Assembly: GCA_963830715.1 (NCBI GenBank)
Contig: CAWHNS010000020.1
Location: forward strand, 102,148-166,147
Length of the DNA stretch: 64,000 nucleotides
Direction of reading: 5' to 3'
From: an uncultured delta proteobacterium
GTDB lineage: Bacteria; Desulfobacterota; Binatia; Binatales; Binataceae
Numbering within the stretch: the stretch's first letter is position 1; the number at the start of each line of letters is the position of its first letter. Position numbers and translations under genes: made by a program. The notes beneath the pieces are model-generated. The model was given only the letters and a program-made list of their open reading frames with translations. It made no database searches and was not told the DNA's origin. Below are positions 1 to 20,266 of this stretch, piece by piece.

Positions 1-1341
1 GGATGCGCAGCGCACAATCACACAGATCGGGGTCGAGATCGGCGCTCTCGAACGCGAAGCGATCACCGGGAGCGATCACCATAAGCGAATCGGGGAGTTG
101 CGGTCGGCGTGCACCGCCGAAGAGGAACGTCTGGCCAAGCTCAAGGAGCAGTGGGACAAGGAACGCGAAATAATCGACCAAATCAAGCAGATCCGCGCGA
201 AACTCGAGGAGCAGCGCCGCGCCGCCACGGCCGGCGACGGCGCAAAGGCCGAGCCCTTGCGCGCCGAGCTCGGAAGCCTGAATGCGCCAAGCTGGCCGGG
301 ATCCAGGGCAGGACTCCGATGATGCAGGTCTGCGTCACCGGGCAGACCATCGCGGAGGTCATCTCCGGATGGACCGGGATACCGGTCGGCAAGATGCAGA
401 CCGATGAAATCAACGCCGTGCTGGCGCTCAAGGACAAGCTCGCGGAGCGAGTCGTCGGCCAGAGCTACGCTCTCGAGGCGATTAGCCAGCGGATTCGCAC
501 CGCCCGCGCCAACCTGACCGATCCGCGCCGGCCGATCGGGGTCTTCCTGCTGGTCGGCACCAGCGGTGTCGGCAAGACCGAAACCGCGCTCGCGCTTGCC
601 GATGCGCTCTACGGCGGCGAGCGCAATCTCGTCACTATCAACATGAGCGAATACCAGGAGGCGCACACGGTTTCGTCGCTCAAAGGCTCGCCTCCGGGCT
701 ACGTCGGTTACGGCGAAGGCGGAGTGCTGACGGAGGCCGTGCGGCGCAAGCCGTATTGCGTGGTCCTGCTCGACGAAGTCGAGAAAGCCCATCCCGATGT
801 GATGGAACTTTTCTACCAGGTGTTCGACAAGGGGATGCTCGAAGACGGCGAGGGCCGCGAAATCGACTTCAAGAATACGATCATCCTGCTCACCTCCAAC
901 GCCGGCTCCGACATCGTGATGAAGCTCTGCGCGGATCCCGCGACGCGCCCCGATCCCGAGGGTCTGGTCGAGGCGCTCAGGCCGGAGTTGGTGAAGATCT
1001 TCAAGCCCGCGCTGCTCGGCCGGATGGTAGTGGTTCCGTACTACCCGATCACCGATGAAGTGATGCGCGGGATCATCAAGCTGCAACTCCAGCGGATTGA
1101 GCGGCGGCTGTTGGAGAACCACGGCGCTAAATTCGATTATGACGAAAAACTCGTCAGCGAAATTGCCAATCGCTGCAAGGAGGTCGAAAGCGGCGCGCGC
1201 AACGTCGATCACATATTGACCCGCACGCTGCTTCCCGAAATGTCGAGCCAGTTCCTCGCCCGGATGGCGACCGGGCAGCCGGTCGAGCGTGCGCGGGTAA
1301 CCGTGGACGAGCGCGGCGCCTTCCGCTATGAGGTGAGTTGA
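1..1341 (+). CDS. clpV: ClpV/TssH type VI secretion AAA+ ATPase, C-terminal two-thirds (5' end outside window); apparent -1/+1 frameshift near 285-300 joining frame of ORF 98..322 to ORF 109..1341
   Basis: M-domain coiled coil (EEERLAKLKEQWDKEREIIDQIKQIRAKLEEQ) then D2 ATPase with ClpV-specific motifs VVGQSYALEAI, GTSGVGKTE, GSPPGYVGYGEGG, FYQVFDKGMLEDGEGREIDFKNT; directly upstream of vgrG. Confidence 0.85.
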
Positions 1342-1429
1342 CGCCAATTCTCCCCGCGCGCGGATCGTGGCGGGGAGTCCCTCGCGCGCCCTCGAGGGGG
1401 CGGATACAGAAGCAGGAGGGCGCCGCGTT

Positions 1430-3517
1430 ATGGCCAACGACCTAAACCCGATGGGGTTTTCCACTTCGGCTCCGGGTGGAGACTCCCTCTATCTGATCGA
1501 CCTTGCCGGGACCGAGGGATTGTCCCAGCTCTTCTCGTTCGATCTCCATCTGGTTTCCGAATCCGGCGTCGATACCGAATCATTCGTCGGCCAGAACGCG
1601 GTCGTGTCGATCACGATCGCGCAGGGCGAACGATACATCAACGGCTACATCAACCGGATCGTTGAACTCGATCCGGACAAGCGCTTCCGCCATTATTCGA
1701 TCCGGCTGGTCCCCTGGATGTGGTTCATGACGCGCCGCTCGAACAGCCGCATTTTCCAGAGCATGTCAACCACCGACATTCTGCAGAAGGTCTTCGACGG
1801 TTTCCCGAAGCCAAGCTCGGGCGCCTATAGCGTGGACGTGAGCGGTATCAAGGGGGACATTCCGACCCGCGCGTACTGCGTTCAATACCGCGAAACCGAT
1901 TTCAATTTCGTCTCACGCCTGATGGAGGACGAAGGAATTTTCTACTTCTTCGAACACGACAAGGAATCCCTGGTCCTGAAGCTGGCGGATGATCCGGAGG
2001 CGCACGAGCCCTGTCCGCTTGATTCGGATTTCGAATACCATCCGCAGACCGGCGACCTCCCGCTTCTGCAGGTGATCACGTCGTGGAAGATGGGGCGCGA
2101 TTTCCGCAGCGGAAAATACGCCCTGGCCAGCTCGCACTACCAGAAGCCGCAGGAGAGCTTTCCGGTCGAGGAACCGAGCTCGATCAGCGTCGCCAACAAC
2201 GATCAGTTCGAGCTCTATGACTTCCCCGGCGAGTACGCCAAGAGCTTCGTTGGCGCCGGCCCCGACGACGACCGATCGGCCTCGCAGAACGTAATGCCGC
2301 AGGGCTCGCGGCTGGCGAAGATCCGGATGCAGGAGGAGGAGTTTCAGTACATCGTCGTTGACGCCACCAGCACCTGTCCGACCGCCACCGCGGGATACCG
2401 GTTTACGCTCACGGAGCATCCTCACGACTCGCCGGACGATTGGAATGATCAGTACGTAATCCTTTCGGTGAATCATTCGGCCAGTCAGCCCGGACCCGGC
2501 AGCGAAGCCGGCGAGGCAATGAAATTCTCGAACACCTTCAACTGCATCCCGAACAAGAATGCGTTCCGGCCGCCGCGGGTGACCCGCAAACCCTTCGTTC
2601 AAGGGCCGCAGACGGCGCTGGTGGTTGGCGCCTCAGGGTCGGAGATCTTCAGCGACAAGTTCGGGCGCGTAAAAGTGCAGTTCTACTGGGATCGCGAAGG
2701 CCAGCTCGACGAGAAGAGGCTCGTGCTGGGTGCGGGTTGCGCAAATCTGGGCCGGCAAGCAATGGGGCGCGATCCAGATCCCGCGGGTCGGGCAGGAGGT
2801 GATAATCGACTTCCTGGAAGGCGATCCGGATCAGCCGATCATAACCGGACGCGTCTACAACGCCGAGCAACTGCCCCCCTACGATCTGCCCGATAATCAG
2901 ACGCGAAGTACGATCAAGAGCCGGAGCTCGAAGGGCGGCAGCGCGGACAACTACAACGAGCTCAGGTTCGAGGACAAGAAGGGCTCGGAGCAGCTCTTCG
3001 TTCACGCCGAAAAGGACATGGACCAGCGCGTCAAGAACGACTCCCGCGAGTGGATCGGCGCCAATCGCCATCTGATCGTGACGACCGATCAGAAGGAGTC
3101 GGTCGGCGGCGACAAGCACCTCAGCGTCACGGGTGATCATCTGGAAAAGATCGGCGGCGGCCACGACCTCCAGATCGCGGGTGACCAGAAAGCAAGCATC
3201 GGCGGCGGACAGTCCATCAATGTCGGCACTAACCGCCAGGAGCAGACCGGATCCAGCTGGGCGCACTCCGCCGGCCAGACCATCTACCTGAAGGGCGGGA
3301 TGACGGTGGTGATCGAAGCCGGGATGGAGTTGTCGCTCAAGGGGCCGGGCGGCTTCGTCGATATCGGCCCCGCCGGCGTCACGATCCAGGGCACGCTCGT
3401 ACAGATCAACAGCGGCGGCTCGGCCGGATCCGGGTCGGGCCCGAATCTCCAGAGCCGAAAGATCCCAAGGCGCCCGATCAGGCCGACGACGGCACCAAGG
3501 GCGGCAAGATGTCGTGA
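1430..3517 (+). CDS. vgrG: VgrG/TssI T6SS spike protein; reading frame switches near ~2710 and ~3440 (three ORF-track pieces)
   Basis: VgrG N-domain RYINGYINRIVELDPDKRFRHYSIRLVPWMWFMTRRSNSRIFQ; then SCWVRVAQIWAGKQWGAIQIPRVGQEVIIDFLEGDPDQPIITGRVYN in another frame; gp5-like repeats; C-terminus EPKDPKAPDQADDGTKGGKMS* in a third frame; AGGAGG RBS before ATG 1430. Confidence 0.85.
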
Positions 3518-3524
3518 GGAACCC

Positions 3525-4067
3525 ATGGGAGCACCAGCAGCGCGACTGACAGACATGCACACCTGCCCGATGGTGACCGGCATAGTGCCGCACGTCGGCG
3601 GCCCGATCGTCTCTCCCGGATGCCCGACTGTGTTGATCGGGATGATGCCCGCGGCGCGCGTCAGCGACATGTGCGTCTGCGTTGGGCCTCCTGACACGAT
3701 CATCCTCGGGGCCTTCACGGTCCTGATCGGAGGACAGCCTGCAGCGCGCATCGGAGACATGACCGCGCATGGCGGCGTGATCATCCTGGGCTGTCCCACC
3801 GTGCTGATCGGGACTTCCGGCGCAGGCGCCGCAGGCGGCGCATCGGGCGCCCCAGGCGCCGGCGCGGGCGGCGGGACGGACGATAGCGACGACGACGAAT
3901 CGGGAGGCTCGCAGGATGACGCCGCAGCCAGTTCCGACGACACCCCTGCCCCCAACGCCGACCAAGCCGCTAGCGCCGCGGGCCTCGAACAATCCGCCAT
4001 CTCAGGCGCTCCCCTGTGCGAGGAGTGCATAAAGGCACAGAAGACCGCCCCGCAAGGAAGCGGCTGA
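3525..4067 (+). CDS. PAAR-domain spike-tip protein with Gly/Ala-rich and acidic low-complexity C-terminal tail ending in CEEC motif
   Basis: Own GAGGA RBS + ATG 8 nt after vgrG stop; PAAR motifs ARLTDMHTCPMVTG, AARVSDMCVCVGPPDTI, AARIGDMTAHGGVI, LGCPTVLIG. Confidence 0.8.
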   Translation: MGAPAARLTDMHTCPMVTGIVPHVGGPIVSPGCPTVLIGMMPAARVSDMCVCVGPPDTIILGAFTVLIGGQPAARIGDMTAHGGVIILGCPTVLIGTSGAGAAGGASGAPGAGAGGGTDDSDDDESGGSQDDAAASSDDTPAPNADQAASAAGLEQSAISGAPLCEECIKAQKTAPQGSG

Positions 4068-4071
4068 CGCG

Positions 4072-4606
4072 ATGGCTCAACCCGACCTGCGCCTTGTCCT
4101 CCGCAATCTCTGGTCGGATTTGCCGGATCGCCACAAGGTGTGGGCAATCGTTGATGGCGCTCGGAATGAGCGGATATACGATCTGCTGGCTCAAACGGGA
4201 TTGGCCGAGAGCTTTTGCCTGTACCGTGGCAAACTGGCGCCGCGACTGAAACGCGCCGCGCCGTATATGGTCAGATTGGAACTCGAGGCGCGTCACCGGC
4301 GACCTGATCGGCCAAGGATGGGGGAACAGCTGGGGCGTTTTTTTTCACGCCGACAAGCCTGCGGAGGAGTTGCGCCGCCACTTTCGGCGATTTCTGATCG
4401 TTCAGGACGAAGGCCGCAAGCGGATGATCTTCCGCTACTATGATCCCCGCGTCCTTCGAGTCTATCTGCCTACTTGTCTGGCGCCCGAACTGCGAACAGT
4501 TTTTGGGCCCGTCCGCCGCTTTCTGCTCGAAAGCGAAGATCCTGCATTGATGCTTGAATACAGGTTCGACGGCTTCAAATTGATAGCCAGAGAGGTTCCC
4601 GTTTGA
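4072..4606 (+). CDS. DUF4123 T6SS adaptor/chaperone (Tap/Tec-like); frameshift near ~4290
   Basis: VWAIVDGARNERIYDLLAQ...LYRG...APYMVRLE then GQGWGNSWGVFFHADKPAEELRRHFRRFLIVQDEGRKRMIFRYYDPRVLRVYLPTC (second frame). Confidence 0.75.
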
Positions 4607-4634
4607 GTTATCGATCGAAAGGCAACCAAGACCG

Positions 4635-4988
4635 ATGTTGGTAATTCGTAAAACGCAGATGGAAGCATTCTCGCAATATATGGAGAAGAGCTTCGAGGAT
4701 CGCATGCTGAAGCATCTCCGAGAGTTTTTTCCCGTGCGCTGCGAGGACCTGCAAGAGAGCGAGCTCCGGCAACTGGTCCGTCAGGGCGTTACCCGTGCCG
4801 GCTCGCACGGATTTACCAGCGAACGCGATGTCGCGCGATACACCGATCTGATGTTCGCCTTGGGAGCGAACTTCGACCAACATCGAGCAACTGCTTGGGC
4901 TGCTGCAATCCTCCGTGACAGAAACGCTGCCAACGAAGACAAGCTCCGGCAGTTGTTCGATAAAGCTGGAGAGTCGCTCAAGCGTTAA
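4635..4988 (+). CDS. hypothetical all-alpha 117-aa protein between adaptor and effector (possible co-effector/immunity/chaperone)
   Basis: Clean ORF with stop; position inside vgrG-adaptor-effector module; no recognisable motif. Confidence 0.4.
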   Translation: MLVIRKTQMEAFSQYMEKSFEDRMLKHLREFFPVRCEDLQESELRQLVRQGVTRAGSHGFTSERDVARYTDLMFALGANFDQHRATAWAAAILRDRNAANEDKLRQLFDKAGESLKR

Positions 4989-5026
4989 AAGCGTCTTCGC
5001 ATCGCAAGTTTCAAAGACAACTGCCA

Positions 5027-6434
5027 ATGGCCGCCGGCGACAATAGCGATGCTGGATCACTCTCCGATGCCGGGGAGGGGTGCGATTCGGGGTTTTCGGG
5101 CGGCGAGGTCGGCGGTGGCCGCAACCCTGCCCGCTGCATAAACCGCACATCTGGGTATGGGACGACCCGGACGACAAGGATCGGCGACAGTACGTCAACC
5201 TGCCCGCCGACTGGGTATCCGCGGTGGAAAGAGGATCCGCAGCGGGGAGAGGACGGCGGGCGGAGTTGCTATGGACAGGAAGTCGTGCTTCAAGGCCATG
5301 TCGAGCCGCGTGACCAGGGCGTCGAGGTCACTTTTAACCTTATCCCAAATCCCGGTAATGATACGCTCGCCGACCAAGCCGTCGTCACAACCGGATGCGT
5401 TTCGAAAAAAGATGGCATCGGGCGTGTGAAACTTCACCTGCCCCTCTACGGCGGGACGAAGTTCAAGGTCGGTGGCAAGACCGACTCAATGGACAAGCCG
5501 GTCAACAGTGGCGAGCTCTGGGTCTGGCGCAGGATATTCTACCAGACTACCGAGATGAAAAATTCGCCGGCGCCCGAGAACCTCTCTTTTCGCGCGCCGG
5601 TCGGTATGATCGAGGCGGTGCGCGGCGCGCTTGAAGAAGTGTACTTCGAAATCCAATCCGCCCCGAAATCGAAGGACACTGCCGAGTACCAGAAGCACGT
5701 CATGGAGGAGCAGCGCGCCGCGCTCGCCAGTGTTCTTCGTTCGAAGGCGCAGGATGCTCGTTCGCCTTTCAAGATTAACGTGGTCCTGATCGACCGTGCT
5801 GACATATTTGTCGAGCAGGAGTGGGCATCTGAGGACAGCGCCGACTGGAAAACCGGGACGGTCCGGACGCCTTCGTTTAGACTGGCGAGCGACGATAGCT
5901 ATGAACACAACGTGCTCCGCGCGGAATACCAGACCATCGATGGCGTCTGGAAGAACCTGGAGAACGTCAGAGTCTTGCCGGCTCCGAAGGGCTCCGGCTA
6001 CTCGTATGCAACAGGACGTATCCCCGGCTTCCCGAAGCTCGACATTGTGGTCGCGGTTCGCATCAAATATCGTTACCAACGCGGTAACGCGGGCGGCTGG
6101 GGTGGCGGCGCTGGAACGATATTCGTGTGCATCGGCCGCCGGCGCCGCGAGAATGCAGCAAGCCCGACGGCAGCCGATCTCCAAAACACGCTAACCCATG
6201 AAATCGGTCATGTGTTGGGGTTGGTGCCGAAGAGGCTCCAGCTGGGAAGATCTTTTTTTTGATCCTGGCCGCAGCAGTCACTGCAAGTATCAGGACAGCA
6301 ACGGGAAGCCACGTTGCGCCATGTGGTATATGGAATGCGCGTGCCTGCGTTTCTGTAACAACGATAAGCCCAATGACTGCGCGCATTTCCTGATCCGCAC
6401 AGAATATTCCATGTCTAAAGTCAGTTGGAACTAG
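5027..6434 (+). CDS. putative T6SS effector: HExxH zinc metallopeptidase-like protein with Cys-rich C-terminal extension; true start uncertain (first ~80 aa of ORF look non-coding); +1 T insertion at T8 run 6253-6260 splits it
   Basis: LTHEIGHVLGL motif near 6190-6225; frame 0 continuation DPGRSSHCKYQDSNGKPRCAMWYMECACLRFCNNDKPNDCAHF; location downstream of vgrG-PAAR-DUF4123. Confidence 0.55.
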
Positions 6435-6437
6435 CCT

Positions 6438-7199
6438 GTGGCCGGTAACGAAATTCGCCTTGAGGTTCCGTCTTCCGCGCCCTCGAGCGGCCCGGCTCCT
6501 CTCCGGGTGACCATGATCGCCGATGTGTTGACGTACGCCGCGAACAATGGCATTCTGGACAGCGCGCTGACCTTGGCCGCCGTTGGGCGCAGTCGCCCTG
6601 GCGTAGGGTTCATCGCGAAGGCGGACCCGCGGGCGTTCATGTTACCGAACGACGAGATGCCGCCGATGGATCCCCCGATAGGTGGTCAAGTCACCGAAGA
6701 ACGAACCTTCGATATGCTGGGCTTTGGCGCCCAGCACCCGGGCGCGGCAGAGTACTTCGTCGTGGCGGGGTTCGCGACCGTGGTCTCGGCCGTACACCGC
6801 TTGTCGATCACCGATCCACGCGGGCCGCTGGGATGGCCCGCGTGCGCGCTGCTGCCGCCGGGCAGCGCCGATCTGCGTCGAAGCCTGCCTCCACCGGCCG
6901 CCGAAGGCCTCGTGGCACGACCGTATTATGACAAGTCTCCGTCGATCGAGGGCGCACTGCGGCGGACGGTCCGCATCGCTCTGCCATTTCTAAATCTGGT
7001 GGCATTCCGGCTCGATCCAAAAGGCGGCGGCTGTGCGGGGTCGTTCTTGCTATCGGCAGAGCGCTCGGGAAGCGAGGATTTGGCGTGGTTCTCGGCTTCG
7101 ATGGCCCTACTGATGCCACCGCCGGGCCTAGGGCGCTGGCGCGTTTTCGCCTTCGCCGGCGACGCTAGCGCTGCCCCCTTTGACGTCACGATAGCCTGA
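6438..7199 (+). CDS. hypothetical protein (GTG start), candidate immunity protein for upstream effector
   Basis: 253-aa ORF immediately (4 nt) after effector stop; no known motif. Confidence 0.35.
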   Translation: MAGNEIRLEVPSSAPSSGPAPLRVTMIADVLTYAANNGILDSALTLAAVGRSRPGVGFIAKADPRAFMLPNDEMPPMDPPIGGQVTEERTFDMLGFGAQHPGAAEYFVVAGFATVVSAVHRLSITDPRGPLGWPACALLPPGSADLRRSLPPPAAEGLVARPYYDKSPSIEGALRRTVRIALPFLNLVAFRLDPKGGGCAGSFLLSAERSGSEDLAWFSASMALLMPPPGLGRWRVFAFAGDASAAPFDVTIA

Positions 7200-7270
7200 C
7201 GACGCGGCGCTACGCGCTGCTACCGGGGCACCTGGCAGGTTGTAGCTGCCGAAAATCAGATCCGGAGGTA

Positions 7271-7830
7271 GTGGTAATGCACTCCTGTGGCTACAGAAAA
7301 TCACGACCGCAAGGCTCGCTCAGGCGTCACTTCGGCCTCGCGGCCGGAGTTCTTGTCCTACTGAATCTCATCATCCAGTTGGCGCCGGCTGATGTGTTGG
7401 CCGGGTCGGCCAAGGGCCCGGTACTCTTCGGGCCTGCCGATGCTGGAAAACTTCGGATGACGAACGAGGAATGGGGTCACGTCGCGCGGTCGCGCTCGCT
7501 CTCGACGGGACCGATCATCGCAGTGGAAAAGCCCAAGGTGGACGATATCGACGGCGTTCCCACCATAGCGACGGACACTCCCACCGATCTGCTGGTGGTT
7601 TTCAAGCAGCGCACCGCGCCCGTGGACATGAACTCGCTTGATGTCGAAGCGCGCAAGGGATGGTTCTCGAAGTCGCTGACCGACATGGTGCGGCCTTACG
7701 TCAAGGGAAATACGCTCGACGTTCCGGGGCTCAAATCCCCCCGGGCAAGTTCCTCCTGGATATCAAGATCGCCGATGAGAACGGCGACACGACCGACGAG
7801 AATTATCGCCTCGATATCAATGGGCAATGA
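7271..7830 (+). CDS. hypothetical secreted protein; ORF-track tail (to 7930) is out of frame after C6 run at ~7737, true C-terminus likely ...SPPGKFLLDIKIADENGDTTDENYRLDINGQ*
   Basis: N-terminal signal-like hydrophobic segment LAAGVLVLLNLIIQLAPA; protein-like alternative frame after homopolymer. Confidence 0.45.
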
Positions 7831-7905
7831 GGCCGGGCTTCGACTAGCAGGCTCTGGGGCGCATCGAATCGATTCAGGTCGTTCACTGCCCTTATCAACA
7901 TGTTG

Positions 7906-8508
7906 CTACGGATTCGCGGGTGCGCCGTAGCCCAGGTTTACGACCTGGACGCGGCGATTCTTCTGGCGGCCCTCTTCGGACTCGTTGCTGGCGACAAAAT
8001 GCGACTTGCCGAAACCCTTCGGCATCATCCGTTGCTTCTCGATTCCCGTGCTCTGGCTAAGATAGTCAATGACGCTTTCCGCCCGTTCTTGTGAAAGCTT
8101 CAGATTATAGGCCGCGTCTCCGGTGGCGTCTGTGTATCCCTGCACCTCGAAGCAGCAGGGCTTCAACTCCGCCGAGTTCAGGGCCTGCCCGAGCGTATCG
8201 AGGGTCTTCAGCGCCTGCGGCGTCAACTTGGCGGAATTGACCTCGAACTCCACATCCAGCGCCGCAATATCGGCCTTGGGAGCGAGCTGGATTCCGCGCG
8301 CGGCCTGCTTCCTGAAGTGCGAGCATTCCGGCGGTTGAAGGCTGATCCCGCGCGGCTTGGGGCCCTTGGGGGTCAGCACGTGAACCAGGCTGTCAGAGGT
8401 CAGATTGCTTCCATTCAGGGCCTTGACCTTTTGCGCGAGCACGCCCCTTGCAAACATCACAACCACTGTTCCCGCTACCAGCAGGCAAAGGCAAAGCTTC
8501 CGATACAT
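7906..8508 (-). CDS. OmpA-family (OmpA_C-like) envelope protein
   Basis: FEVNSAKLTPQA...VQGYTDATGDAAYNLKLSQERAESVIDYL...EGRQKNRRVQVV; N-terminal signal peptide. Confidence 0.8.
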   Translation of the reverse strand: MYRKLCLCLLVAGTVVVMFARGVLAQKVKALNGSNLTSDSLVHVLTPKGPKPRGISLQPPECSHFRKQAARGIQLAPKADIAALDVEFEVNSAKLTPQALKTLDTLGQALNSAELKPCCFEVQGYTDATGDAAYNLKLSQERAESVIDYLSQSTGIEKQRMMPKGFGKSHFVASNESEEGRQKNRRVQVVNLGYGAPANP

Positions 8509-8550
8509 TGAAGTTCCTCCTTGCGTATCAGTCGATTATCAACCAGCTAC

Positions 8551-10425
8551 TCAAGACGTTCCAGCAGTCTTGCCGGGCGACTTCAGAACCTCCACGACCT
8601 TGGTGCCCTTGTCCAACGGCTTGGTGTGATCGATCACTTTGGCGAACGAGGCCTTCTCCTGTACCACCGTAATTTCCAGGGAGCCTATCTTCGTCGGCTT
8701 CTGGGCGATGACCACCCCGTTGACGGTGATCGGCTCCTCGACTATCGCGTTCATCCGGCCCCTACCGTTGCGCCCGCGTTGGAGCCCGCGTCGATAACCG
8801 CCTCGTCGCCATCGAGCGCGACGATATGGCCGCGCAGAGGATAATCCTGTTGCACCTGCTTCATGATGTCGGCGGCGGTCTTCTCCGCGACGCCCACTAA
8901 ACCCGCGGTCCCGCTTCCCTGCTCGGAAAGATTGACTTTCACTTCAGTGGTCTCGGTATCGATCATCTGCACGTTGAGCACGTACTGGTCCTTTCCGAGG
9001 AAGACCACGTTCCCGGTTCCGAACAGCCGCGCGATTTTGGTCTGCTGAAGCTTGAGGCGGGTCGCCGGGTCCGAGAGATCCGACATGCTCAGTTGGAGTT
9101 CCTTCAATATGCTGTTCAGCAGTTGACGATCGACAACGGTGACGCGCTTGGTACCCTGGAGCTGCTGGCTGATCTGCGAGACTAGGGCGGCATGCAAGCC
9201 GGCCAGCTCGGGCGACCCTCCGAGCGTGCTGAAATCGATGAACGCGACCACCAACGGCCGTGGCGCAAAGGGGTCGGACGGCCCCTCGTTGTCGAGCCCC
9301 TTTGAGCGTCCTTGCGGTCTGCGCCACGATGTCCTGCTGTGCCTGCGGATCGTTGCGGTATGCGAGGTCCGCGCTGACATCGTCGTTCAGCACGCGCGCC
9401 ACCTGGTTGGTCGGGTCGGTTTTGCTGGCGCTGGCGAACATCGATTGCGCCTTTTCGAGCGACCCGCTTTTCTGCAGATCCATCCCCTGCTGGATCTGGG
9501 ACGCGGCCTGGTTCGCCTGATCCGGCGACGGCGGTTGCAAAGCGCGCGCGACCGGAAAGTTGGTGCCTTCGGCGCGTACGTAAGGATGCTGCTTGTTGCC
9601 GGTCTTTTCCTCCACCTTATCGGTGGCATAGGTGAAAAGATTCAGGATATCGACGCTGCCATCTTTCCCCGCCGCCCCGCCGTTCAAGCCCTCCAGCAAT
9701 GCGTAAGTGAAGACCCCATGCCCCTTGGACTCGCCGGGCATCCTGTAACTGCCGTCCTCCCACGATTCCTCGTCGCCTTCGCTCGAACTCAGGATGTAAG
9801 CCTCAGGCATCTTGGGAGAGAGCTCGCTCACCAGGCTGACTCCACGCGCTCGATGCTGAGTAGTCATCAACTCTTCGAGCCCTCGAACCCGGAAGTTCAG
9901 CGCCGCGGCATGGCAGGTATCTACGATGACGACGGTCTTGCCGAGTTTCGCACTGACCCTCTGCACGGCGCCGGCGAAGTCGGAAACCGGAACTCCTTCC
10001 GTCGTCAGGTTGGACAGATCAGCCGGATATGGAACGTAATAGAAGGTGCCGTTGATGGTTACGCCATGACCCATCAGCGCGATTATCGCGGTGTCGTTGG
10101 GCGAGGCGGGGGCGAAGAACGACTCCATCTGGCTGAGGATCGCCTGCTTCGTCACCTGTTCGTTAACGAGTACATCGGTCTTGACGCTGTCGAAGACGCC
10201 CCTTCCTTCCCGCTGCAGGGCGCTCGCAAGGGTCACGGCGTCATTGTCGCCGAATTGCAGATCGATCGTGCTGTTGCGATAGTGGCTCATTCCGGCCGCG
10301 AATACCCAAAGCGTGCCCTTGGCCTGGGTGTCGCTATGCGCGTCGCGCGGCGACAAAATGGTTCCGCTGCCAATCGCGACGATCAGAAGCATCGAAAATA
10401 TGGAGGCGCGGCGAATGATTTTCAT
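8551..10425 (-). CDS. secreted caspase-domain (peptidase C14) protein fused to C-terminal CsgG-like domain; two apparent frameshifts (~9297 G4 run, ~8755)
   Basis: Signal peptide MKIIRRASIFSMLLIVAIGSG; caspase His/Cys dyad IIALMGHG ... VVIVDTCHAAALN; C-terminal LVVAFIDFSTLGGS...VTVVDRQLLNSILKELQLSMSDLSDP...KIARLFGTGNVVFLG (CsgG-like) continued in a third frame to 8551. Confidence 0.7.
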
Positions 10426-10627
10426 GCCGATGTCACTCGGGGGAACCGGGCTCCGATCGATTGGAGAACTTGGCCGCCACAATTAAACCGCGCACTCGCC
10501 GGAAAATCAATCTCGATTCCGGTGGCCGACATCTGATGCGTGGGCTCATTTCGCCTTGAATTGATGAGCGTTTGCGGCACATGATCTGCTCTTCGAGTAA
10601 CGCCATGGACTTCGAAGCGTGGTCGCG

Positions 10628-11421
10628 ATGAGCCCCCGGAAGGTGCTGCCCTATTGTCTCGGAAGCGCGCTTTGCGCTGCCGTCGCCCTGCTTGCGGCGG
10701 CTGCGCCACGTCCGGCCCAACCAGGACAGCCACAACGGTGGTCGTAGAAAAACCGGGCGTGGCAAAACCGAGCGCGCCAACACCGATTGCACCGGCCATG
10801 GTCACCGTCGCGGTGGCCGAGTTCGAGGGCGGCAGCGTACCGCCCGACAAGAAGACCGAGTTCTGGGGCAGGGCGCTCGCGAGCTTCATCGGCGCCGATC
10901 TCGGCGCGTCGCCAAGCGTGAAGTTGGTCGATCGCGAGCACCTGAACGAAATTCTTCGCGAACAGCGTCTCAGTATGGGCGATCTCTCCGATCCCGACAC
11001 CCGCCTGCGCGTTGGACGGATCGCGGGTGCGAAGTACTTCGTTTTCGGAACATACACTATCGTGGGCGGCACCGCGGCGTTGACCGCGCGCATGGATTCC
11101 GTCGAGACCGGCCAGATTATAGATTCCCGCAGCGTCAGCGGCCCGCCGGACGATATGCGGAAGCTATCGCGGCAACTTAGCGTAGCCTTTCTGGCCCCGA
11201 TCGATAGCATCCTCGCCGAGCAGGAGGCCCACGAAGCGCCGCCACAGGGCGCCCCAGTCGCGGCGGCCACGAGCTACTTCTCACAGGGATTGACGGATGA
11301 ACGGCGCGGAGATTACGAGAAGGCGATCGACATGTACACCAGGGCGCTCACTGTCTCCCCGCATTACCAGGAAGCGCAGGACCATCTGGCGAAAGTATCA
11401 GAGGCCGCAGCCCGCCAGTAG
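10628..11421 (+). CDS. CsgG-like lipoprotein with C-terminal TPR-like helix; signal peptide in a different frame from the domain (frameshift ~10700-10740)
   Basis: MSPRKVLPYCLGSALCAAVALLAAAAP then VTVAVAEFEGGS...VKLVDREHLNEILREQRLSMGDLSDPDTRLRVGRIAGAKYFVFGTYTIVGG (CsgG family pattern). Confidence 0.65.
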
Positions 11422-11441
11422 TTTCGTCTAGGGCGGTATCG

Positions 11442-12302
11442 ATGGGAAAATCCGCCAAGCTTTTGGTGGTCGCCTTGGCAATTGGATTGCTGATCGCGTC
11501 GAACGCGATCGCCCAACGCAGTTCCCCTAATCTGCCCGAAGGGAAGACGGTTCCCGCGCCAGATACCGAGCACCAACTCGCTTTGCTCGTCGCATCGTCG
11601 TTCGCGGGCGAGAGTGAGATGCGCGATGAGACCCACAATGACATTGTGGCGATCGGCGACGGCCTGCGGCAGCGCGGCTTCTCTCCGCAGGAAATCGCGG
11701 TCCTGGAAGGCGCGCCGCTCACTCGCCAATCGCTTACGGAATTCCTGCGCGCGGCCGGGCGCCGAGTCTCACACTGGCAAAGCGGAAAGGTGTTCTTCTA
11801 CTTCGCCGGTCATGGAAACTACGTCGGCAGGAGGGTCGGTCTGCAACTGGCGGACGATCCGGGTGACGAAGAGGGCAGGCCTTCCCGCTCTCTGATGTTC
11901 TGGGATGAAGCGCTGGCATCTCTTGACCTGCCGGCCGGAATCCAACTCTTCTTGCTCCCCGACTCGTGACACACCAACCTTCTCGCCGGCCGTGTGCCGG
12001 CGAACCTGGTTGCGATAGTCATCAAGGCTCCGCCAGGAGCCGAGTTCCTGTGCAAGGCCGGCAACGCATATTTCGACAACGGCCACGGCAAAGCCGTCGA
12101 ACGCGGCGTGATTTCGTACTACGCCGCTCAGTCGCTCCCATCGGCCACTACCGTTGAATCCTGGCTGGCCCGGATCGATGCGTTGATCGAGGTTGACTTT
12201 CGGCGGCATCGACTAGGCCGGCTGGAAAGACCCCCTCTGCAGGTGTTGGGAAATGGGAGAGCGAGCCTTCCCGGGATGGCGGTGTTGCCTGCGCAAGACT
12301 GA
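11442..12302 (+). CDS. secreted metacaspase-like peptidase C14 with in-frame TGA (11967-11969) at the catalytic cysteine position; candidate selenoprotein, or disrupted gene
   Basis: Signal peptide MGKSAKLLVVALAIGLLIASNAIA; HQLALLVASSF, KVFFYFAGHGN (catalytic His), DDEALASLDLPAGIQLFLLPDS-TGA-HTNLLAG matching metacaspase DSCHSG; in-frame continuation 111 codons to 12302. Confidence 0.6.
11976..12011 (+). promoter_or_regulatory. SECIS-like stem-loop 6-40 nt downstream of the in-frame UGA: lower stem aacc/ggtt, internal loop, 8-bp GC upper stem tcgccggc/gccggcga, apical loop CGUGU
   Basis: Perfect 8-bp inverted repeat read directly in sequence; apical loop contains GU; apical loop ~21 nt from UGA (within bacterial SECIS range). 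Confidence 0.45.
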
Positions 12303-12433
12303 CCATCGATCGAGCGATACCGGCGCGACGATCGGATTATAGCGCCGTTCGCTCGACTGCGCGGCGAGCAACTCGCACGCCGAGGATGCTCGAAATCCCG
12401 GCGTAGCAGGTTGCGTTTGCAAAGCGGTTTGAT

Positions 12434-15400
12434 TTGGGCTATCGATCTGCGGACTTTCGGGGGATGCCCGTGCCAAGGTTGGCTTCACAGCGTTTCAGAA
12501 AAAGATGTTCAGCGTTTCTACGCGACGCACATTTCGCGGTCGTGAGGAACGTGTGTCTTCTCGCGTTGGCGCTGCTATTCGCAGGCTGTCTGGATCCCAA
12601 CTGCCCTTCGTGCCCGCCGCCCAAGCGCGCAGCGACGCCAACTCCCAAACCTACGCCTAGACCCCCGACCCCGACGCCCACCCCGACGCCGACGCCAACC
12701 CCACCGCCTCCGCCGACTCCCACGCCTACGCCAACACCGCCTCCGACGCCCACACCGGCGCCATCGCCGTCACCTACGGCGACCGCACCACCTACGCCGA
12801 CTCCGACGCCAACCCCAACACCGCCTCCGACGCCCACACCAACGCCATCGCCGTCACCTACGGCGACCGCACCACCTACGCCGACTCCGACTCCAACACC
12901 GACGCCGACTCCCACGCCGACTCCGACTCCAACTCCGACTCCGACCCCAACTCCGACTCCGACCCCAACGCCGACGCCGACACCCACGCCTACTCCTACG
13001 CCAACGCCGACCCCTACGCCGACTCCAACACCGACGCCGACCCCGACCCCGACGCTAACCCCAACACCGACGCCCACGCCAACGCCGACTCCGACACCAA
13101 CGCCGCCGCCGCCTCCGACTCCAACCCCAACACCGACGGCGACCCAGGTTCCCATCTTCGAAGAGAGTTCGACGCCCACGCCGACCCCGACTCCTGCGCC
13201 CCCACCGATCTTCAACGTTTACGGTCAGGCGATGGGCGGATTTAATCCGATTTCCGGCTCTTCTGTGACGCTTCTCCAGGCCTCCGCCAGCCCAGGAGGC
13301 GGTGCGACTATCCTGGGCACGACGACCAGCGACTCCGGCGGTAACTTCTCGATTGTGCTGCAAGGCTTTCCACCGCAGGGTTCCATCCTGTACCTGCTGG
13401 CGAGCGGCGGTGATGCCGGCGGCGGGGCGAACACCGCGATCGAGCTGATGTCGATCATCGGTCAGGTCGGCAACACCGTGCCTACGACCGGTCCGATAAA
13501 TGCGACGATCAACGAGCTGACCACGGTCGCGTCGGCATACGTGGCCTCGAACTTCATCAGCGACGAGACCAATATCGCGGACAATTCTTTTGGCGCGCTG
13601 GCGGGCGCGGTCTCGGGAATCGGCAACCTCGTTAACGTTCAGACCGGCGGACTGGGGGGCACGATCACGAGGGGCAACAACGATCCGACCAAGCTGGTAA
13701 CGCTGGCGAACGCGCTGGCGAATTGCGTGCAGGCAACTGCAGGCTCAACTCCATGTACGAACCTGTTCAACGCCGCAGATTCGTCGTTCGATACGCTCGC
13801 TGCGATTATCAGCATCAACAAGTATCCCGCGAGCAGCGTCGGCGCGATTCTCGGTTTGGGGTCGAGCGGTCCGTATGCTGCGCCTCCGACGCCGACCCCT
13901 AGCCCGACGCCGACGCCCAGCGACTTGACGCTCGAGGTGAACTTCACTGCCGGTCAGCTGAATGATCCTTCCGGCATTGCGATCGACGGTTCGGACAACG
14001 TCTGGGTGCCGAACCGATTGGGGAACAGTGTGACGGAGTTGAATCCCTCCGGAACCCCGGCGCCCGGGAGTCCCTTTACCGTCGGCGGGCTGGGCCCTGA
14101 CGCCATTGCGATCGATGGCTCCGGCAATGCCTGGATTGCGAACCAAGGGTCGGCAGCGGATGATTTCCTAGCCAACAGTGTAACCGAGTTGAATTCCTTC
14201 GGCATGGCGGTCGGCAATTTCACCGGCGGCGGGCTGGGTGATCCTACAGGCATTGCGATCGACGGCTCCGGCAACGTTTGGGTGTCGAACTATTTTGGCC
14301 TGACTGTAGGCGTGAACGGCGGTGTGACGGAGTTGTTCGGCGGTGACACACCCACTGCTTGCCCGACTATACCCGTGAGCGGCGACACGGGATGTCCGGT
14401 CTCCGGGTCGCCCTTCATCCTCGGCGGGCTAGATGGGCCTTCGGGCATTGCGATCGACGGCTCCGGCAACGCCTGGGTGACGAACGGACAAATTCTGCCA
14501 AACGCCAACAGTGTGACCGAGTTGAATCCCTCCGGCGCCGCGCTCTCACCGGCAAACGGGTTCATGGGCGGCGGGCTGAGCGGTCCTTCTGCCGTCGCGA
14601 TCGACGGCTCCGGCAACGCCTGGGTGACGAACAGCTTCGCCAGCGCAAACAGTGTGACGGAGTTGAATCCCTCTGGCACGGCGGTCGGCAATTTCACCGG
14701 CGGCGGGCTGTCCGGTCCTGCGGGCATTGCAATCGATGGCGCCAACAACGTCTGGGTGGCGAACGCAGGCAGCGACACCGTGACGGAGTTGAATTCCTCA
14801 GGCATCGTTCTCACACCGGCAATCGACGCAAGCGGCGGTGTGGGGGGAGATCCTGATGCGATTGCGATCGACGGGGCGGGCAACGTCTGGGTCGCCATCT
14901 CGGGTAACGCCGTAACCGAGATTATCGGCGCAGGCGCGCCGACCAAGACGCCGTTGCAGGCGCGGCTCGCGTCGCTGCCGGCTGCCGGGCACTTCGTCTA
15001 CACCAACGACGACAACAGTCCCAATACCGTCTCGGGATTTTCAGTCGCATCCAACGGCGTACTGACGCTGCTTGCCGACTCGCCGTTTTCTACCGGCGGC
15101 AGCGGCAGCCCGTTCGGTTTCCACGGAAGTAATCTCATAGTCATCAACGGAACCGTACTGTTTGCCAGCAACAGCGGTGTACCCGCTGGCGGCGGCAGCG
15201 AAAGCATCAGCGTCTTCGCAATCAACCCCAGTAGCGGCGATCTCGTGCCGGTGGCGGGCTCGCCCTTTCCAGTCGGGGCTACGCATAGGGGTGACATCTC
15301 GCTGGCGGTAACTCCCAACGGCCAATTCCTGTTCGCCAGCGACCCTGGAACGTCCGAGATCTTCGCCTTCAGCGTCGGCTCCGGGGGACCATTGACGGCG

Positions 15401-16054
15401 GTGCCCGGCTCGCCTTTCCCGAGTGGCGGGCTAATCGCCGGTGGCACGGAGGTCACAGCGAACAGTCAGTTTTTGGCGGTAGCGCTGGCAGGTTCCAGCG
15501 CGATCGCCACTTTCGGCATCGGCAGCAACGGTGCACTCACGCCCGTGGCTGGCTCGCCCTTTTCTGCGGGAAACGAAGTGGCTGGAATCGACATCAACGC
15601 GACGAGTACTCTTCTGTTTGGAGGCGGCGCTGGCTCTGGCACTACCGTTGACGTCTTCAACCTGGCGTCCAACGGGGCGTTGGCCCCGACCGCCAGCTCA
15701 CCCTTCAGCTTCCCCAGCGTTGGAAGCAGCTCGAGCGTCGTGCGGCTCAGTCCCAGCCAGCAGCTCCTGTTCGTCAGTAACCAAGAGAGCAGCACAGTCA
15801 CGGATTTCACGGTAGACGGCAGCGGCAATTTGACGCTCGTAGCGGGAGCGCCCTTCGCGGTCCCCGGCATCTCGGTGCCCTCCGGAATGGACACAGACCC
15901 TGCTGGTTCGTTCCTGTACGTCGCTGCGTCGGTACCTAACGCCGTCAGCGTATTTTCGATCGCTGGCAATGGAACGCTAACGCCGCTTGGCTCGTTCGGG
16001 ACGGCCCAGGGCGCAACGCTGGCATCCTTAGCGGCATTTCCTGCGACGCGGTGA
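12434..16054 (+). CDS. large lipoprotein/surface protein: lipobox signal, ~190-aa Pro-Thr linker, NHL-repeat beta-propeller, lactonase-type 7-bladed beta-propeller (likely start GTG ~12542)
   Basis: [16 protein letters not shown] lipobox; (TP)n; repeated GIAIDGSGN(A/V)[13 protein letters not shown] units x7; then [25 protein letters not shown] / [12 protein letters not shown] / [14 protein letters not shown] lactonase-propeller repeats. Confidence 0.8.
12640..13200. repeat. hexanucleotide-type tandem repeat (ACN CCN)n encoding the Pro-Thr linker
   Basis: ccgacgccgactccgac... repeated >80 times; the antisense reads as (GV)n ORF 12439..13215. Confidence 0.9.
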
Positions 16055-16134
16055 TGGCAGCTCCCTTTTTGCATATGGGGCCCGAAGATGAAACTCGCAC
16101 GTCAGGTGTCGCCGCAAACGAGGGAGAGCGCGCA

Positions 16135-17538
16135 ATGAACTCGCATCGGCAAATCGCAGCGGTCGGAACTATCGCAGCCGCTCTTGTCGCGCTGGCGTTG
16201 TGCGGGTTTGGCCGGCTTGGGGCCGGACTGGCCTTTGCCGATCAGCCCAAAGGCGCCGCCGCGCCGGCAGGTTCGAGCAATGCCGAGCCGGGCGCGCTGG
16301 TTTCCAGCGGAATCAACGCCTACGATCAGGGCGACTACTCGGGGGCGATAAACGATCTCAGCGCGGCCCAGAAACTCTATCCCACGAACAGCTCGGTTTC
16401 GCTCTATCTGGGCCTGGCCTACCTCAAGCAGGACCGGCTCGCCGACGCGATCGCTGCCTGGCAGCGGTACCTCAAACTGAAGCCCTCCACCGAGGCCGAG
16501 CGGACGGGCGATCTTTCACAGAAAATTCCGCAATATCTGACCATCCTGCTGCGCGAGCACGACCATCAGCAGGCCGAGGAGGCGGTCGCGCACGAGCGCG
16601 AGATCGGTCCCGGCGACCCGCATACGGTCGCGATCACCTACTACCGCAATCTTGGCTCTCCGTTTCTGAACGTCCTTCGCAAGGGCTTGGCCGCGCTTCT
16701 GATCGATGACGTTTCCAAGGTGCCGGGTATCAAGGTGGTCGAGCGCGATCGGATGCAAGCCCTGCTCGACGAGATGAAGCTCGGTTCCAGCGGCTTGGCC
16801 AGCTCCACGACCGCCGCGCGGACAGGGCGTCTCCTGGGCGCAGGACGAGTGGCAACCGGCAGCTACGTGGACCCAACAGCGGCGGAACTCAATATCGACT
16901 CCGCGCTGATGGATACGTCCGCAGCGCATGGCGGGTCTACTCAGGCCGCGAACGGAAGGACCGCCCAGTTCTACGAGATCGAGAAGCAACTTGCCGCCAA
17001 GCTCTTGAAGGACCTTGGTCACGACGAGAGCACTCTGCCCGAAGGCGTCGTGCGGGAGATACAGAAACCGCAGACCGTTCGCTATTCGGCATTCGAGAGC
17101 TTCTCGAGAGGCCTCGACGCGAGGGATCGGCAAGACTATCCGGCGGCGCGCGGCTTTTTCCAGCAAGCGCTGACCTACGACCCGAACTTCAAGCTGGCCG
17201 GATTGGAGCTGCTCTATACTCCAACGGCGCCACTTGCAGTTCGTGCGATCCAGAGCAATGTCCGCTCCTCGGCGCCATCCGCGTCTGCGGCGGCGGCTGC
17301 CGCTGCGGCCGCGGCTGCGAGCGCTGGAGCGGGGGTATCGACTGCGACAGGCGGCGGATCGACCGGCGGCGGATCGACCGGCGGCGGATCGACCGGCGGG
17401 CCGACTGGCGGCGTGCCGACGGGTGGCGCGCCAGCGGTGCCGATAGGCGGGTTGACAAATGGCGCGACGATTCCCCCCGTGCCACCGCCATGCCCGCCAT
17501 TGATCTGTCCGGCATGCGTGGTAGCGGTGCACAGATGA
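16135..17538 (+). CDS. lipoprotein with TPR repeats flanking a CsgG-like domain; Ala-rich and GGST-repeat C-terminal low-complexity tail
   Basis: MNSHRQIAAVGTIAAALVALALCGFG; TPR-like YDQGDYSGAINDLSAAQKLYPTNSSVSLYLGLAYLKQDRLADAIAAWQRYL; TVAITYYRNLGSPFLNVLRKGLAALLIDDVSKVPGIKVVERDRMQALLDEMKLGSSG. Confidence 0.65.
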   Translation: MNSHRQIAAVGTIAAALVALALCGFGRLGAGLAFADQPKGAAAPAGSSNAEPGALVSSGINAYDQGDYSGAINDLSAAQKLYPTNSSVSLYLGLAYLKQDRLADAIAAWQRYLKLKPSTEAERTGDLSQKIPQYLTILLREHDHQQAEEAVAHEREIGPGDPHTVAITYYRNLGSPFLNVLRKGLAALLIDDVSKVPGIKVVERDRMQALLDEMKLGSSGLASSTTAARTGRLLGAGRVATGSYVDPTAAELNIDSALMDTSAAHGGSTQAANGRTAQFYEIEKQLAAKLLKDLGHDESTLPEGVVREIQKPQTVRYSAFESFSRGLDARDRQDYPAARGFFQQALTYDPNFKLAGLELLYTPTAPLAVRAIQSNVRSSAPSASAAAAAAAAAAASAGAGVSTATGGGSTGGGSTGGGSTGGPTGGVPTGGAPAVPIGGLTNGATIPPVPPPCPPLICPACVVAVHR

Positions 17539-18338
17539 GAACCTCGACTTCGAGACGCCGCCACGGCTGCCTATTGACGGCGTCGACCGGGTGGATGGCA
17601 TTGAGCATGATCCTGCTCGCCATCGGCTCCGGATGGTGCCAGAGCGCAGGTCCTTCTCCGGCGACGCCGAGCAGCATCCTTTCGGATCCATTGGCGATCC
17701 AGCGGCCCGGCCAGCTAAGTCTTCTGTTGTTCGGCGGCGGGTACCGGAGCGACGAGTCCGCTACTACTGAGGAGGGATTTCAGCTCGAACAGAGCCTGAC
17801 AAAGGACATCGGGGTGGTCGCGCGCGCGATCGGGTATCAGCTTTACATGGGAGCCGGCTTCGGCGATCCTCTGGCGCCGAGCGAGGGCCATAACGCGCGA
17901 TTTAATTTCGGCCGCTTTGAAGGCGGATTCGATTTCGCGCTGGTCCCCGGCACCAACTTCTACATATTGGGCGGCGGCGATGCCGCCGACAGTCACGCAG
18001 GAGTGGTCGAAGGCGACTTCACGAGTTGGCTGTTCATGCGAAGCAGCCATCCGATCAACCTCGCGATGAGCGCCAACTACGACTCGCAGAATCGCGTAAC
18101 CAGCAGCGAGATCGACCTTCGCATGATTCTGTATTCAAATGAGCAGATGCTGCTGATCGGCGGCGTGGGCGGAGCGATCTTCGGCGGCGGATTCGTGCCG
18201 AACGTGGATGGCGAAGGCGGGGGAATCGTAGGAATCTATTTTCCCAAGTGGCAGATCGGATTGGACGGCCAGCGCCGGCTACGGGGGAGCAAAGACCTAC
18301 GGTCAGGTAAGCCTTTACAAGCGCTTCCGCTGGACTGA
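17535..18338 (+). CDS. putative outer-membrane beta-barrel protein (signal peptide; Gly/aromatic-rich); C-terminal end possibly frameshifted (~18260)
   Basis: MRTSTSRRRHGCLLTASTGWMALSMILLAIGSGWCQSAG; alternating G/Y/F-rich strands; alternative frame gives ...GYGGAKTYGQVSLYKRFRWTE*. Confidence 0.45.
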   Translation: MRTSTSRRRHGCLLTASTGWMALSMILLAIGSGWCQSAGPSPATPSSILSDPLAIQRPGQLSLLLFGGGYRSDESATTEEGFQLEQSLTKDIGVVARAIGYQLYMGAGFGDPLAPSEGHNARFNFGRFEGGFDFALVPGTNFYILGGGDAADSHAGVVEGDFTSWLFMRSSHPINLAMSANYDSQNRVTSSEIDLRMILYSNEQMLLIGGVGGAIFGGGFVPNVDGEGGGIVGIYFPKWQIGLDGQRRLRGSKDLRSGKPLQALPLD

Positions 18339-19467: not shown

Positions 19468-19490
19468 CCTTATCTTCGGAGTCCGCGCCA

Positions 19491-20250: not shown

Positions 20251-20266
20251 GCTCGGAGAACGGCAG

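Follow-up and report, generated by a model that had tools for sequence, protein, structure and literature searches.

A conserved caspase gene module predicted to act in the cell envelope of Binataceae, with a probable selenocysteine caspase beside it in one genome

Introduction

What does a caspase do among proteins that appear to leave the cytoplasm? Discussions of bacterial caspase homologues usually present them as effectors of cell death or defense that act in the cytoplasm, and the locus considered here sits uneasily with that role. It lies in an uncultured delta proteobacterium of the Binataceae (assembly GCA_963830715.1, contig CAWHNS010000020.1, positions 102,148 to 166,147), and "the window" denotes this whole stretch of 64,000 nucleotides. 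Seven genes at 7.9-18.4 kb of the window encode an OmpA-type protein, a caspase fused to a CsgG-like domain ("the fusion"), a divergently transcribed CsgG-like lipoprotein, a stand-alone caspase interrupted by a UGA codon, a giant beta-propeller protein, a TPR and CsgG-like protein, and a Gly-rich protein. The initial annotation took the repeated co-occurrence of CsgG-like and caspase domains to indicate a dedicated apparatus for surface proteolysis, surface signaling or programmed cell death.

In this study, we examine the identity, conservation and possible function of these genes. The cluster is real and is conserved in uncultured Binataceae soil bacteria, and it is a variant of known parts. 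We put at somewhat better than even the chance that it specifies a proteolytic module that resides in the envelope and is characteristic of Binataceae (Candidatus Binatia), in which a periplasmic caspase complex would be tethered to the outer membrane and peptidoglycan. The envelope caspase module in the initial claim is retained, while a CsgG channel is not. The most surprising element of the locus is the selenocysteine caspase, the stand-alone protein in which UGA very likely specifies selenocysteine at the catalytic position.

Results

The caspase fusion and its partners are conserved in Binataceae

Pfam places a Peptidase_C14 domain (PF00656, gathering cut-off 21.4 bits) in both proteins that had been named caspases, at 69.8 bits in the fusion and 34.4 bits in the UGA protein. 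The fusion had been described as one gene; two frame changes mean that it is not a single open reading frame (ORF), but its three reading-frame pieces, once joined, can be aligned over their full length with 11 unbroken homologues, which are single ORFs of 610-650 aa. The catalytic His and Cys (Table 1) are invariant across the 12 aligned fusion sequences. The structural model of an orthologue with 71% identity (P0032; pTM 0.78) divides into a caspase domain, in which a disordered loop immediately follows the catalytic Cys, a set of four TPR-like helices and two further domains, one alpha/beta and one beta, and the caspase domain has the caspase/haemoglobinase fold. Judged by sequence, the fusion is a cysteine protease of the caspase type in which both residues of the His/Cys dyad are intact and activity is predicted.

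A search with the reconstructed fusion returned about 30 full-length clusters at 46-71% identity, and the named ones belong to Candidatus Binataceae or Binatia. Among species-representative genomes, full-length relatives were found in three metagenome-assembled genomes (MAGs) of Candidatus Binataceae and in one MAG labeled "uncultured delta proteobacterium". Gene neighborhoods were counted at 11 loci with DNA, the window included. The lipoprotein gene is divergent from the fusion gene at 10 of these (the window, L007, L008, L010-L013 and L140-L142), the remaining locus, L006, being without a lipoprotein gene, and an OmpA gene follows the fusion at eight, counting the window. At least eight further fusion clusters are on contigs that match in size those of a lipoprotein cluster. 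The outer flanks vary by locus, with NadA in the window and glycosyltransferases, transposase-like genes and hydrolases elsewhere. Because the arrangement is conserved in related loci, the neighborhood of caspase and CsgG-like genes is not due to chance, as had been argued from the window alone. The further claim, that the two domains co-occur repeatedly in two arrangements, applies to this genome only. The gene for the UGA caspase is missing from all ten related loci, and the neighborhoods of its homologues are unrelated; the stand-alone caspase is an addition peculiar to this genome and not a conserved member of the module.

The OmpA gene is located 42 nt past the fusion gene and has a GGAGGAA ribosome-binding site ahead of its start. 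Its domain scores 78.5 bits in Pfam (cut-off 27.2), consistent with the family first assigned to it, although the gene falls outside the range of 8551-18338 within which it had been counted. Orthologues with 63-72% identity stand directly after the fusion in L006, L008, L010, L011, L013, L140 and L141. OmpA has been recorded earlier in 14 metacaspase operons (PMC3501461).

An N-terminal signal sequence, called by eye, is present in all seven products at 7.9-18.4 kb, so an envelope location is a reasonable prediction for the module. The description of these products as signal-peptide or lipobox proteins is correct as to the signal sequences, but the homologues of the TPR and CsgG-like protein and of the giant protein carry ordinary signal peptides.

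The CsgG-like domains are predicted to be small periplasmic scaffolds

Of three CsgG-like domains initially proposed, two exceed the Pfam cut-off of 20.8 bits, at 29.6 bits in the lipoprotein gene (read as 10654-11421) and 30.3 bits in the TPR and CsgG-like gene. The third, in the fusion, falls below it at 16.5 bits, yet the three segments align clearly as paralogues, and some fusion homologues have precomputed PF03783 or PF13036 matches. Pfam supports both the C14 and the CsgG-family assignments. Both matches above the cut-off span only positions ~10-97 of the 210 in the profile.

The lipoprotein family comprises 65 homologue clusters in which the lipobox Cys is invariant. Its model (pLDDT 85.8) has short strands only and is without transmembrane hairpins; in fold comparison it scored 13.8 with the TolB N-domain, 12.1 with an LPHT-ring protein, 11.5 with CsgG, 11.1 with PelC, 10.7 with HpaA and 10.5 with LpoB. 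The alpha/beta domain thus matches several members of the TolB-N/LpoB/PelC/FlgT-like scaffold fold by structure, and a sequence profile of the domain gave matches in the PDB at E~1 only (CsgG and FlgO). No Pfam or NCBIfam match to the curli partner genes csgA/B/E/F was obtained among the genes of 5-18.4 kb. Since the Pfam match covers only the first half of the CsgG profile, the models have no hairpins and curli genes are missing, the domain is best regarded as a small scaffold and not a channel; a true curli channel is ruled out by the missing hairpins and partner genes. "CsgG-like" is correct at the level of the fold family, in which the models point to a periplasmic scaffold domain of the TolB-N/FlgT/PelC/LpoB/CsgG type.

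Further envelope architectures are found among caspases of lower identity (33-38%). A caspase joined to a TolB-N-like and a C-terminal domain occurs in other Binatia, in a Myxococcales MAG and in bacterium HR30, and exported caspases of Desulfobacterota have an N-terminal alpha/beta region, repeated beta domains and a C-terminal caspase. The loci compared for two other exported-caspase families were L014, L015, L017, L020, L027, L030 and L037, and L022, L025 and L039-L041. These independent architectures in other lineages indicate that the association of an exported caspase with the scaffold fold is recurrent. The C-terminal domain shared by the Binatia, Myxococcales and HR30 proteins is conserved and ends in ...GGKWKI.

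The stand-alone caspase very likely contains selenocysteine

The in-frame TGA of the stand-alone caspase lies exactly at the catalytic Cys position. The translation reads FLLPDS-U-HTNLL, the downstream sequence HTNLLAGRVPAN... is conserved, and the His motif FAGHGN is present. TGA is the catalytic codon at 42 of the 43 homologous loci drawn from metagenomes and the window (33 of 34 distinct ones), the other locus, L090, having TGC, and the frame past the TGA runs on for about 100 conserved codons. The UGA is therefore not a nonsense mutation, given its conservation in 42 of 43 homologues with the downstream frame intact. Reassignment of UGA was also ruled out, TGA being the main stop codon of the window (19 of 31 genes).

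Eleven full-length forms of the family have Cys at the aligned position, which is an invariant column, and ten of them read PD-C-C-x. The other 30 clusters that match the repaired protein are 162-218 aa long, and all 13 that were retrieved end in ...LLPDS. An exhaustive profile search gave 155 representative proteins, and most of the 150 listed stop at the catalytic codon, with lengths of about 100-175 aa. Genes of the UGA family are annotated as truncated hypothetical proteins of about 165 aa, and present pipelines overlook the whole family.

Downstream of the UGA lies a candidate selenocysteine insertion sequence (SECIS) hairpin of the bacterial type, the loop of which is 21 nt past the UGA. 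The family form is GCCGGC-CGKGU-GCCGGC plus two further pairs. Over 31 distinct sequences, 90% of cells are paired, compared to 10-68% in slid controls; three pairs are altered on both sides, with C-G changed to U-A at two positions, in different sequences. The window RNA folds at the hairpin with -27.1 kcal/mol (z -3.5). Rfam returned no match for the candidate hairpin. At the TGC locus (L090, ~1717-1775), the GCCGGC hairpin is lost and a different perfect hairpin, GGAAGG-CTC-CCTTCC, is in its place.

Selenocysteine is very likely the residue encoded by the UGA, its insertion being inferred. The Sec machinery apart, the UGA, the open frame, the Cys forms and the hairpin are the features by which a bacterial selenoprotein is accepted at the sequence level. 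The family is a divergent branch of C14, and although its chemistry is probably that of a peptidase, this is not certain. A further Cys, 28 residues on, is invariant. The Cys forms (P0158 and P0211-P0266, alignment A8) carry a Cys-Cys doublet; the selenocysteine forms have S, T, N or A before U.

A full-text literature search for selenocysteine with metacaspase gave nothing relevant, and no publication on a caspase or peptidase with selenocysteine was found. The words caspase, peptidase and protease are not present in a 2026 review of the prokaryotic selenoproteome (PMC13188914).

Table 1. Positions of the module genes, their domains and the adjoining features in the window.
Feature	Position	Strand	Remarks
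Flanking type VI secretion genes (context)	109..7930	+	Pfam
ClpV	109-1341	+	Pfam; window begins inside ClpV
VgrG fused to PAAR	1367-4067	+	Split by frameshift near 2712
DUF4123 adaptor	~4060-4650	+	Complete only with two frames joined
ORF with HEIGHVLGL	5027-6400	+	Seemingly continues in another frame
ORF with relatives beside VgrG in L008 and L141	7271-7930	+	C-terminus apparently frameshifted
OmpA-type protein, 200 aa	7906..8508	-	PF00691, 5e-22; signal peptide
Fusion: secreted caspase, TPR-like helices, TolB-N/CsgG-like domain, beta domain; ~624 aa	8551..10425	-	Two frameshifts
Beta domain of fusion	8554-8849	-	
TolB-N/CsgG/LpoB-like alpha/beta domain of fusion	8850..9272	-	
Caspase (Peptidase_C14) domain of fusion	9571..10293	-	Catalytic His120 (MGHG), Cys171 (DTCHA)
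Divergent intergenic region between fusion and lipoprotein genes, 202 bp	10426..10627		Sequence
Predicted outer-membrane lipoprotein, TolB-N/CsgG-like domain and C-terminal TPR-like helices	10628..11421	+	One frameshift
Stand-alone secreted caspase-fold protein, 286 aa	11442..12302	+	PF00656, 2.4e-8; TGA at catalytic Cys
In-frame UGA, predicted selenocysteine codon	11967..11969	+	At catalytic Cys position
Candidate bacterial SECIS hairpin	11983..12003	+	8-bp stem, CGUGU loop
Giant secreted protein, 1206 aa	12434..16054	+	Pfam NHL, SGL, Lactonase; PT linker
Periplasmic TPR and TolB-N/CsgG-like protein	16051..17538	+	TPR_2 1.6e-14; CsgG 30.3 bits
Gly-rich secreted protein, ~265 aa	17535..18342	+	Frameshift ~18262

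A type VI secretion cluster adjoins the module

A type VI secretion system (T6SS) gene cluster, missed in the initial annotation, abuts the module. T6SS genes converge on the OmpA gene in 5 of the 11 loci (the window, L008, L011, L140 and L141), while the other flanks vary. In L140 the T6SS end comprises Hcp, TssE/F/G, ClpV, VgrG and a HEAT protein, and in L011 a VgrG-PAAR gene is 120 nt from OmpA. This adjacency could reflect a functional link or inherited synteny.

A functional link would make the module an accessory of the neighboring T6SS, with OmpA and the lipoprotein anchoring or gating the apparatus and the caspase processing a component or effector, or destroying incoming effectors. 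OmpA-type peptidoglycan anchors are usual T6SS accessories, the OmpA protein matches the TssL-long OmpA model at 56 bits, and the frameshifts of the window, described below, strike T6SS and module genes alike. However, that match is far under the cut-off of 139.8 and no better than those to many other OmpA models, and four loci (L006, L007, L010 and L013) have neither VgrG nor ClpV in a flank of about 10 kb. We know of no T6SS with a caspase or a CsgG-like lipoprotein, and common ancestry within one family could account for the synteny. We consider the accessory role unlikely. Literature searches for Binatota with type VI secretion, and for Peptidase_C14 or caspase with CsgG, found nothing relevant.

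Three downstream genes form an optional sub-module

The genes for the giant, TPR and CsgG-like, and Gly-rich proteins adjoin the core in 4 of the 11 loci (the window, L008, L142 and, in part, L007), in differing order, and this trio is an optional sub-module. The giant protein of the window, correctly described at the outset as a 1206-aa protein with a PT linker and NHL and lactonase domains, begins with an LLFAGC signal/lipobox followed by a Pro-Thr linker of about 230 aa and by NHL/SGL and lactonase-type beta-propellers. Its relatives (1447-2933 aa, 44-46% identity over about 570 aa) adjoin the module in L007, L008 and L142; its homologues start with ordinary signal peptides, the LLFAGC motif being restricted to the copy in the window. 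The linker is encoded by about 700 bp of near-perfect (ACN-CCN)n at 12560-13250, the length of which in the assembly may be unreliable, and the complement of this repeat forms a long artefactual Gly-Val ORF (12439-13215).

The TPR and CsgG-like gene has a probable start at ATG 16135, and its orthologues in L008 and L142 have 49-57% identity; its homologues have no lipobox. The Gly-rich protein, first described as an outer-membrane protein, has no Pfam or NCBIfam match. Its gene had been read to 18338, but a change of frame near 18262 moves the true end to 18342 and gives the C-terminus ...AGYGGAKTYGQVSLYKRFRWTE, an end (...YKRFRWTE) like that of the orthologues. In L008 and L142 the orthologue comes after the TPR and CsgG-like gene, and in L007 it stands before the giant gene.

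The locus could also be read as a CsgG/PelC-type outer-membrane export apparatus, in which the TPR and CsgG-like protein, the Gly-rich protein and the lipoprotein would make up a channel through which the giant NHL protein (or else a polymer) is exported or displayed, with the caspases as maturation or sortase-like proteases comparable to PorU of the type IX secretion system (T9SS). The Pfam CsgG matches over the cut-off, the resemblance of TPR repeats, a PelC-like domain and a separate secreted Gly-rich protein to PelB (TPR and porin) with PelC, and the synteny of the trio in the window, L008, L142 and partly L007 are in keeping with such an apparatus, as is a weak match of the giant protein to PorZ. 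Yet this last match amounts to 18.7 bits against a cut-off of 260, and the CsgG-like domain, with matched profile positions 10-97 of 210, has only short strands in its model in place of the CsgG transmembrane hairpins. Partner genes of the curli or Pel systems are missing, the C-terminal residue of the Gly-rich protein is not aromatic and its barrel nature is putative, and the trio is missing from 7 of the 11 loci. An export apparatus is thus an improbable account of the locus.

Frameshifts in the window are more likely assembly errors than decay

Four genes of the locus are frameshifted, which the initial annotation did not record. At least six single-base frameshifts at 2.7-18.3 kb are confirmed by homology, in VgrG, the DUF4123 adaptor, the fusion (two), the lipoprotein and the Gly-rich gene, and two more are suspected in the same interval. 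The six sites are near 2712, 4330, 8757-8762, 9299, 10690-10697 and 18262. In the ~30 ORFs of 18.4-64 kb, domains are complete and no frameshift was seen. VgrG is split within its Phage_base_V domain, and the adaptor gives a full profile match (1-118 of 119, 2e-28) only with two frames joined. The fusion reads in frame 0 to ~9299, in frame +1 to 8751 and in frame 0 again, with shifts at ~9299 and ~8757-8762. The lipoprotein had been given as a CsgG-family gene, which it is, but its body does not share the frame of the ATG at 10628: the signal peptide is in the 10628 frame and the body, from the lipobox Cys, in the 10654 frame, the shift at ~10690-10697 being just ahead of that Cys.

Such a run of lesions might suggest a decaying or mis-assembled region in which pseudogenes follow one another and the UGA is a plain nonsense mutation, particularly as the ORFs beyond 18.4 kb are free of shifts. 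The lesions, however, are all 1-nt indels, with no nonsense codon or deletion, and protein conservation resumes right past each shift, a pattern that fits consensus errors in a MAG assembled from long reads. The fusion gene of the closest genome (L013; MAG MFD03044.bin.2.84, 359-kb contig) has a +1 shift of its own at 11113-11115, about 30 codons from the first shift of the window. For these reasons, consensus errors of long-read assembly are more likely than decay. Together with the conserved UGA and the intact orthologues of every module gene elsewhere, this makes a dead region a decidedly poor explanation. Programmed frameshifting was ruled out, since each orthologue is one ORF and the positions of the shifts vary from genome to genome. 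Logan contigs (ERR12036785) cover 7771-8749 and 10741-12788, short of the frameshift sites, and the second is identical to the window. For the clustering at 2700-18300, the alternatives are poor polishing, through strain heterogeneity or low coverage, and a joint decay of the T6SS and caspase module.

A cell-death, abortive-infection or conflict system akin to the CHAT/SAVED, gasdermin-activating or EACC1-associated caspases is very improbable, and we found no evidence for the cell death proposed initially. In favor of such a system, caspase domains are common effectors there, the best NCBIfam match of the caspase domain of the fusion is to "caspase, EACC1-associated type", and PADLOC gave a weak "caspase" match (24 bits). 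Against it, the NCBIfam match reaches 62.5 bits with a cut-off of 140, every protein bears an N-terminal signal sequence, a partner NTPase, sensor, gasdermin or nuclease is missing, and PADLOC gave no system component beyond generic OmpA/MotB (ZorB) similarity.

Regulatory signals and boundaries

The shared divergent intergenic region had been put at about 200 bp and measures 202 bp. The promoter and terminator scan gave no sigma-70-like site in it and found two terminator-like sites only, both within genes. A search for shared 10-mers in the divergent intergenic regions of 10 loci yielded GC-rich background only, and Rfam gave nothing relevant for 7.5-18.8 kb of the window. The stop codon of the lipoprotein and the ATG of the stand-alone caspase are separated by 20 nt. 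Directly past the module, at 18385-20686, are ordinary housekeeping genes for NadA, a Nudix regulator of the NrtR type and a protein with a PCYCGC motif, and these set its right-hand boundary. A histidine kinase and a sigma-54 response regulator lie 2.4 kb downstream of the module (20741-23712). Regulators near other module loci include two sigma-54 activators (L007, 12870-15825) and a CHASE2 protein (L142, 101-1255).

Discussion

The function that we favor for the module is proteolysis in the envelope by a tethered periplasmic caspase complex. Characterized relatives of the scaffold fold assemble as rings or anchors. The lipoprotein would supply a lipid anchor at the outer membrane, the paralogous domains of lipoprotein and fusion would co-assemble beneath that membrane, and the OmpA protein would tie the assembly to peptidoglycan. 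Exported via the Sec pathway, the caspase domain would be held in the periplasm at the interface of outer membrane and peptidoglycan, where it may cleave envelope or exported proteins. The trio would be the most obvious candidate for clients or partners. In this genome, a second, stand-alone secreted caspase would have been inserted, with selenocysteine decoded from UGA by way of the downstream SECIS hairpin, and its selenol nucleophile may resist irreversible oxidation in the oxidizing periplasm.

Several points weigh against this picture. The module families are known from sequences and models, and ring formation is a guess, because the same alpha/beta fold is found in the monomeric binders TolB-N and LpoB. 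The supposed clients occur at only 4 of the 11 loci. Should the frameshifts in the fusion, lipoprotein and Gly-rich genes be genuine, this organism has a dead module. As for the stand-alone caspase, no tRNA was found in the window and no sel genes among its annotated ORFs; scores of the selenocysteine family against C14 are weak, with 5 of 13 members at E<=0.01, and hhalign relates the family to the fusion family at E 0.002. Moreover, several Cys forms are without the canonical GHG His, and for this reason the family may not be proteolytic. Together, the Cys doublet, the second Cys and the missing His offer hints of redox control or of non-protease chemistry.

A more specific picture, in which an exported caspase-fold family, widespread in soil and with a catalytic selenocysteine, was recruited in Binataceae to a T6SS-linked, outer-membrane-tethered caspase apparatus that acts on giant surface proteins, is possible but doubtful. 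If it is true, the family would be the first natural seleno-peptidase. A catalytic selenocysteine in a caspase fold would extend the use of this residue to hydrolytic enzymes and would offer a natural test of selenium over sulfur in an oxidizing compartment. An exported caspase in a conserved envelope assembly points away from cell death and defense and toward envelope proteolysis, surface-protein maturation or T6SS support, and the module is a defined three-gene unit open to testing.

Comparison with known systems

The bacterial metacaspases and orthocaspases, such as Geobacter GSU0716 (PDB 3bij) and Microcystis MaOC1, differ from the fusion, which is predicted to be exported and carries TolB-N/CsgG-like and beta domains. 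The module caspase also has fixed lipoprotein and OmpA partners, and the second caspase has a predicted selenocysteine instead of Cys. In relation to TolB-N, the FlgT-FlgO H-ring, PelC, LpoB and CsgG, the module domains are without the transmembrane hairpins of CsgG, and none of the curli, Pel, flagellar or PBP partners accompanies them; their fold is joined to a protease or to TPR helices, and solved structures are matched by sequence at E~1 only.

A single operon that brings TPR repeats together with a PelC-like domain and a putative outer-membrane protein is also the arrangement of the PelB-PelC exopolysaccharide exporter, a likeness that is one of analogy only. In the locus described here, the TPR repeats are fused to the PelC-like domain, the putative barrel is separate, and the window has no polysaccharide synthesis genes. 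The T9SS attachment complex (PorU, PorZ and PorV/PorQ) is alike in placing a clan-CD protease at the outer membrane with a large propeller and small outer-membrane proteins. In contrast, the locus has no T9SS genes or C-terminal sorting domains, the similarity to PorZ is 18.7 bits, and the protease is of family C14, not C25.

Finally, the UGA family resembles the bacterial selenoproteins in which selenocysteine replaces Cys, in its conserved UGA, its Cys homologues and a hairpin loop with G/U located 21 nt past the UGA. Known selenoprotein families are nearly all redox enzymes, whereas the UGA family is predicted to be exported and to have a caspase fold.

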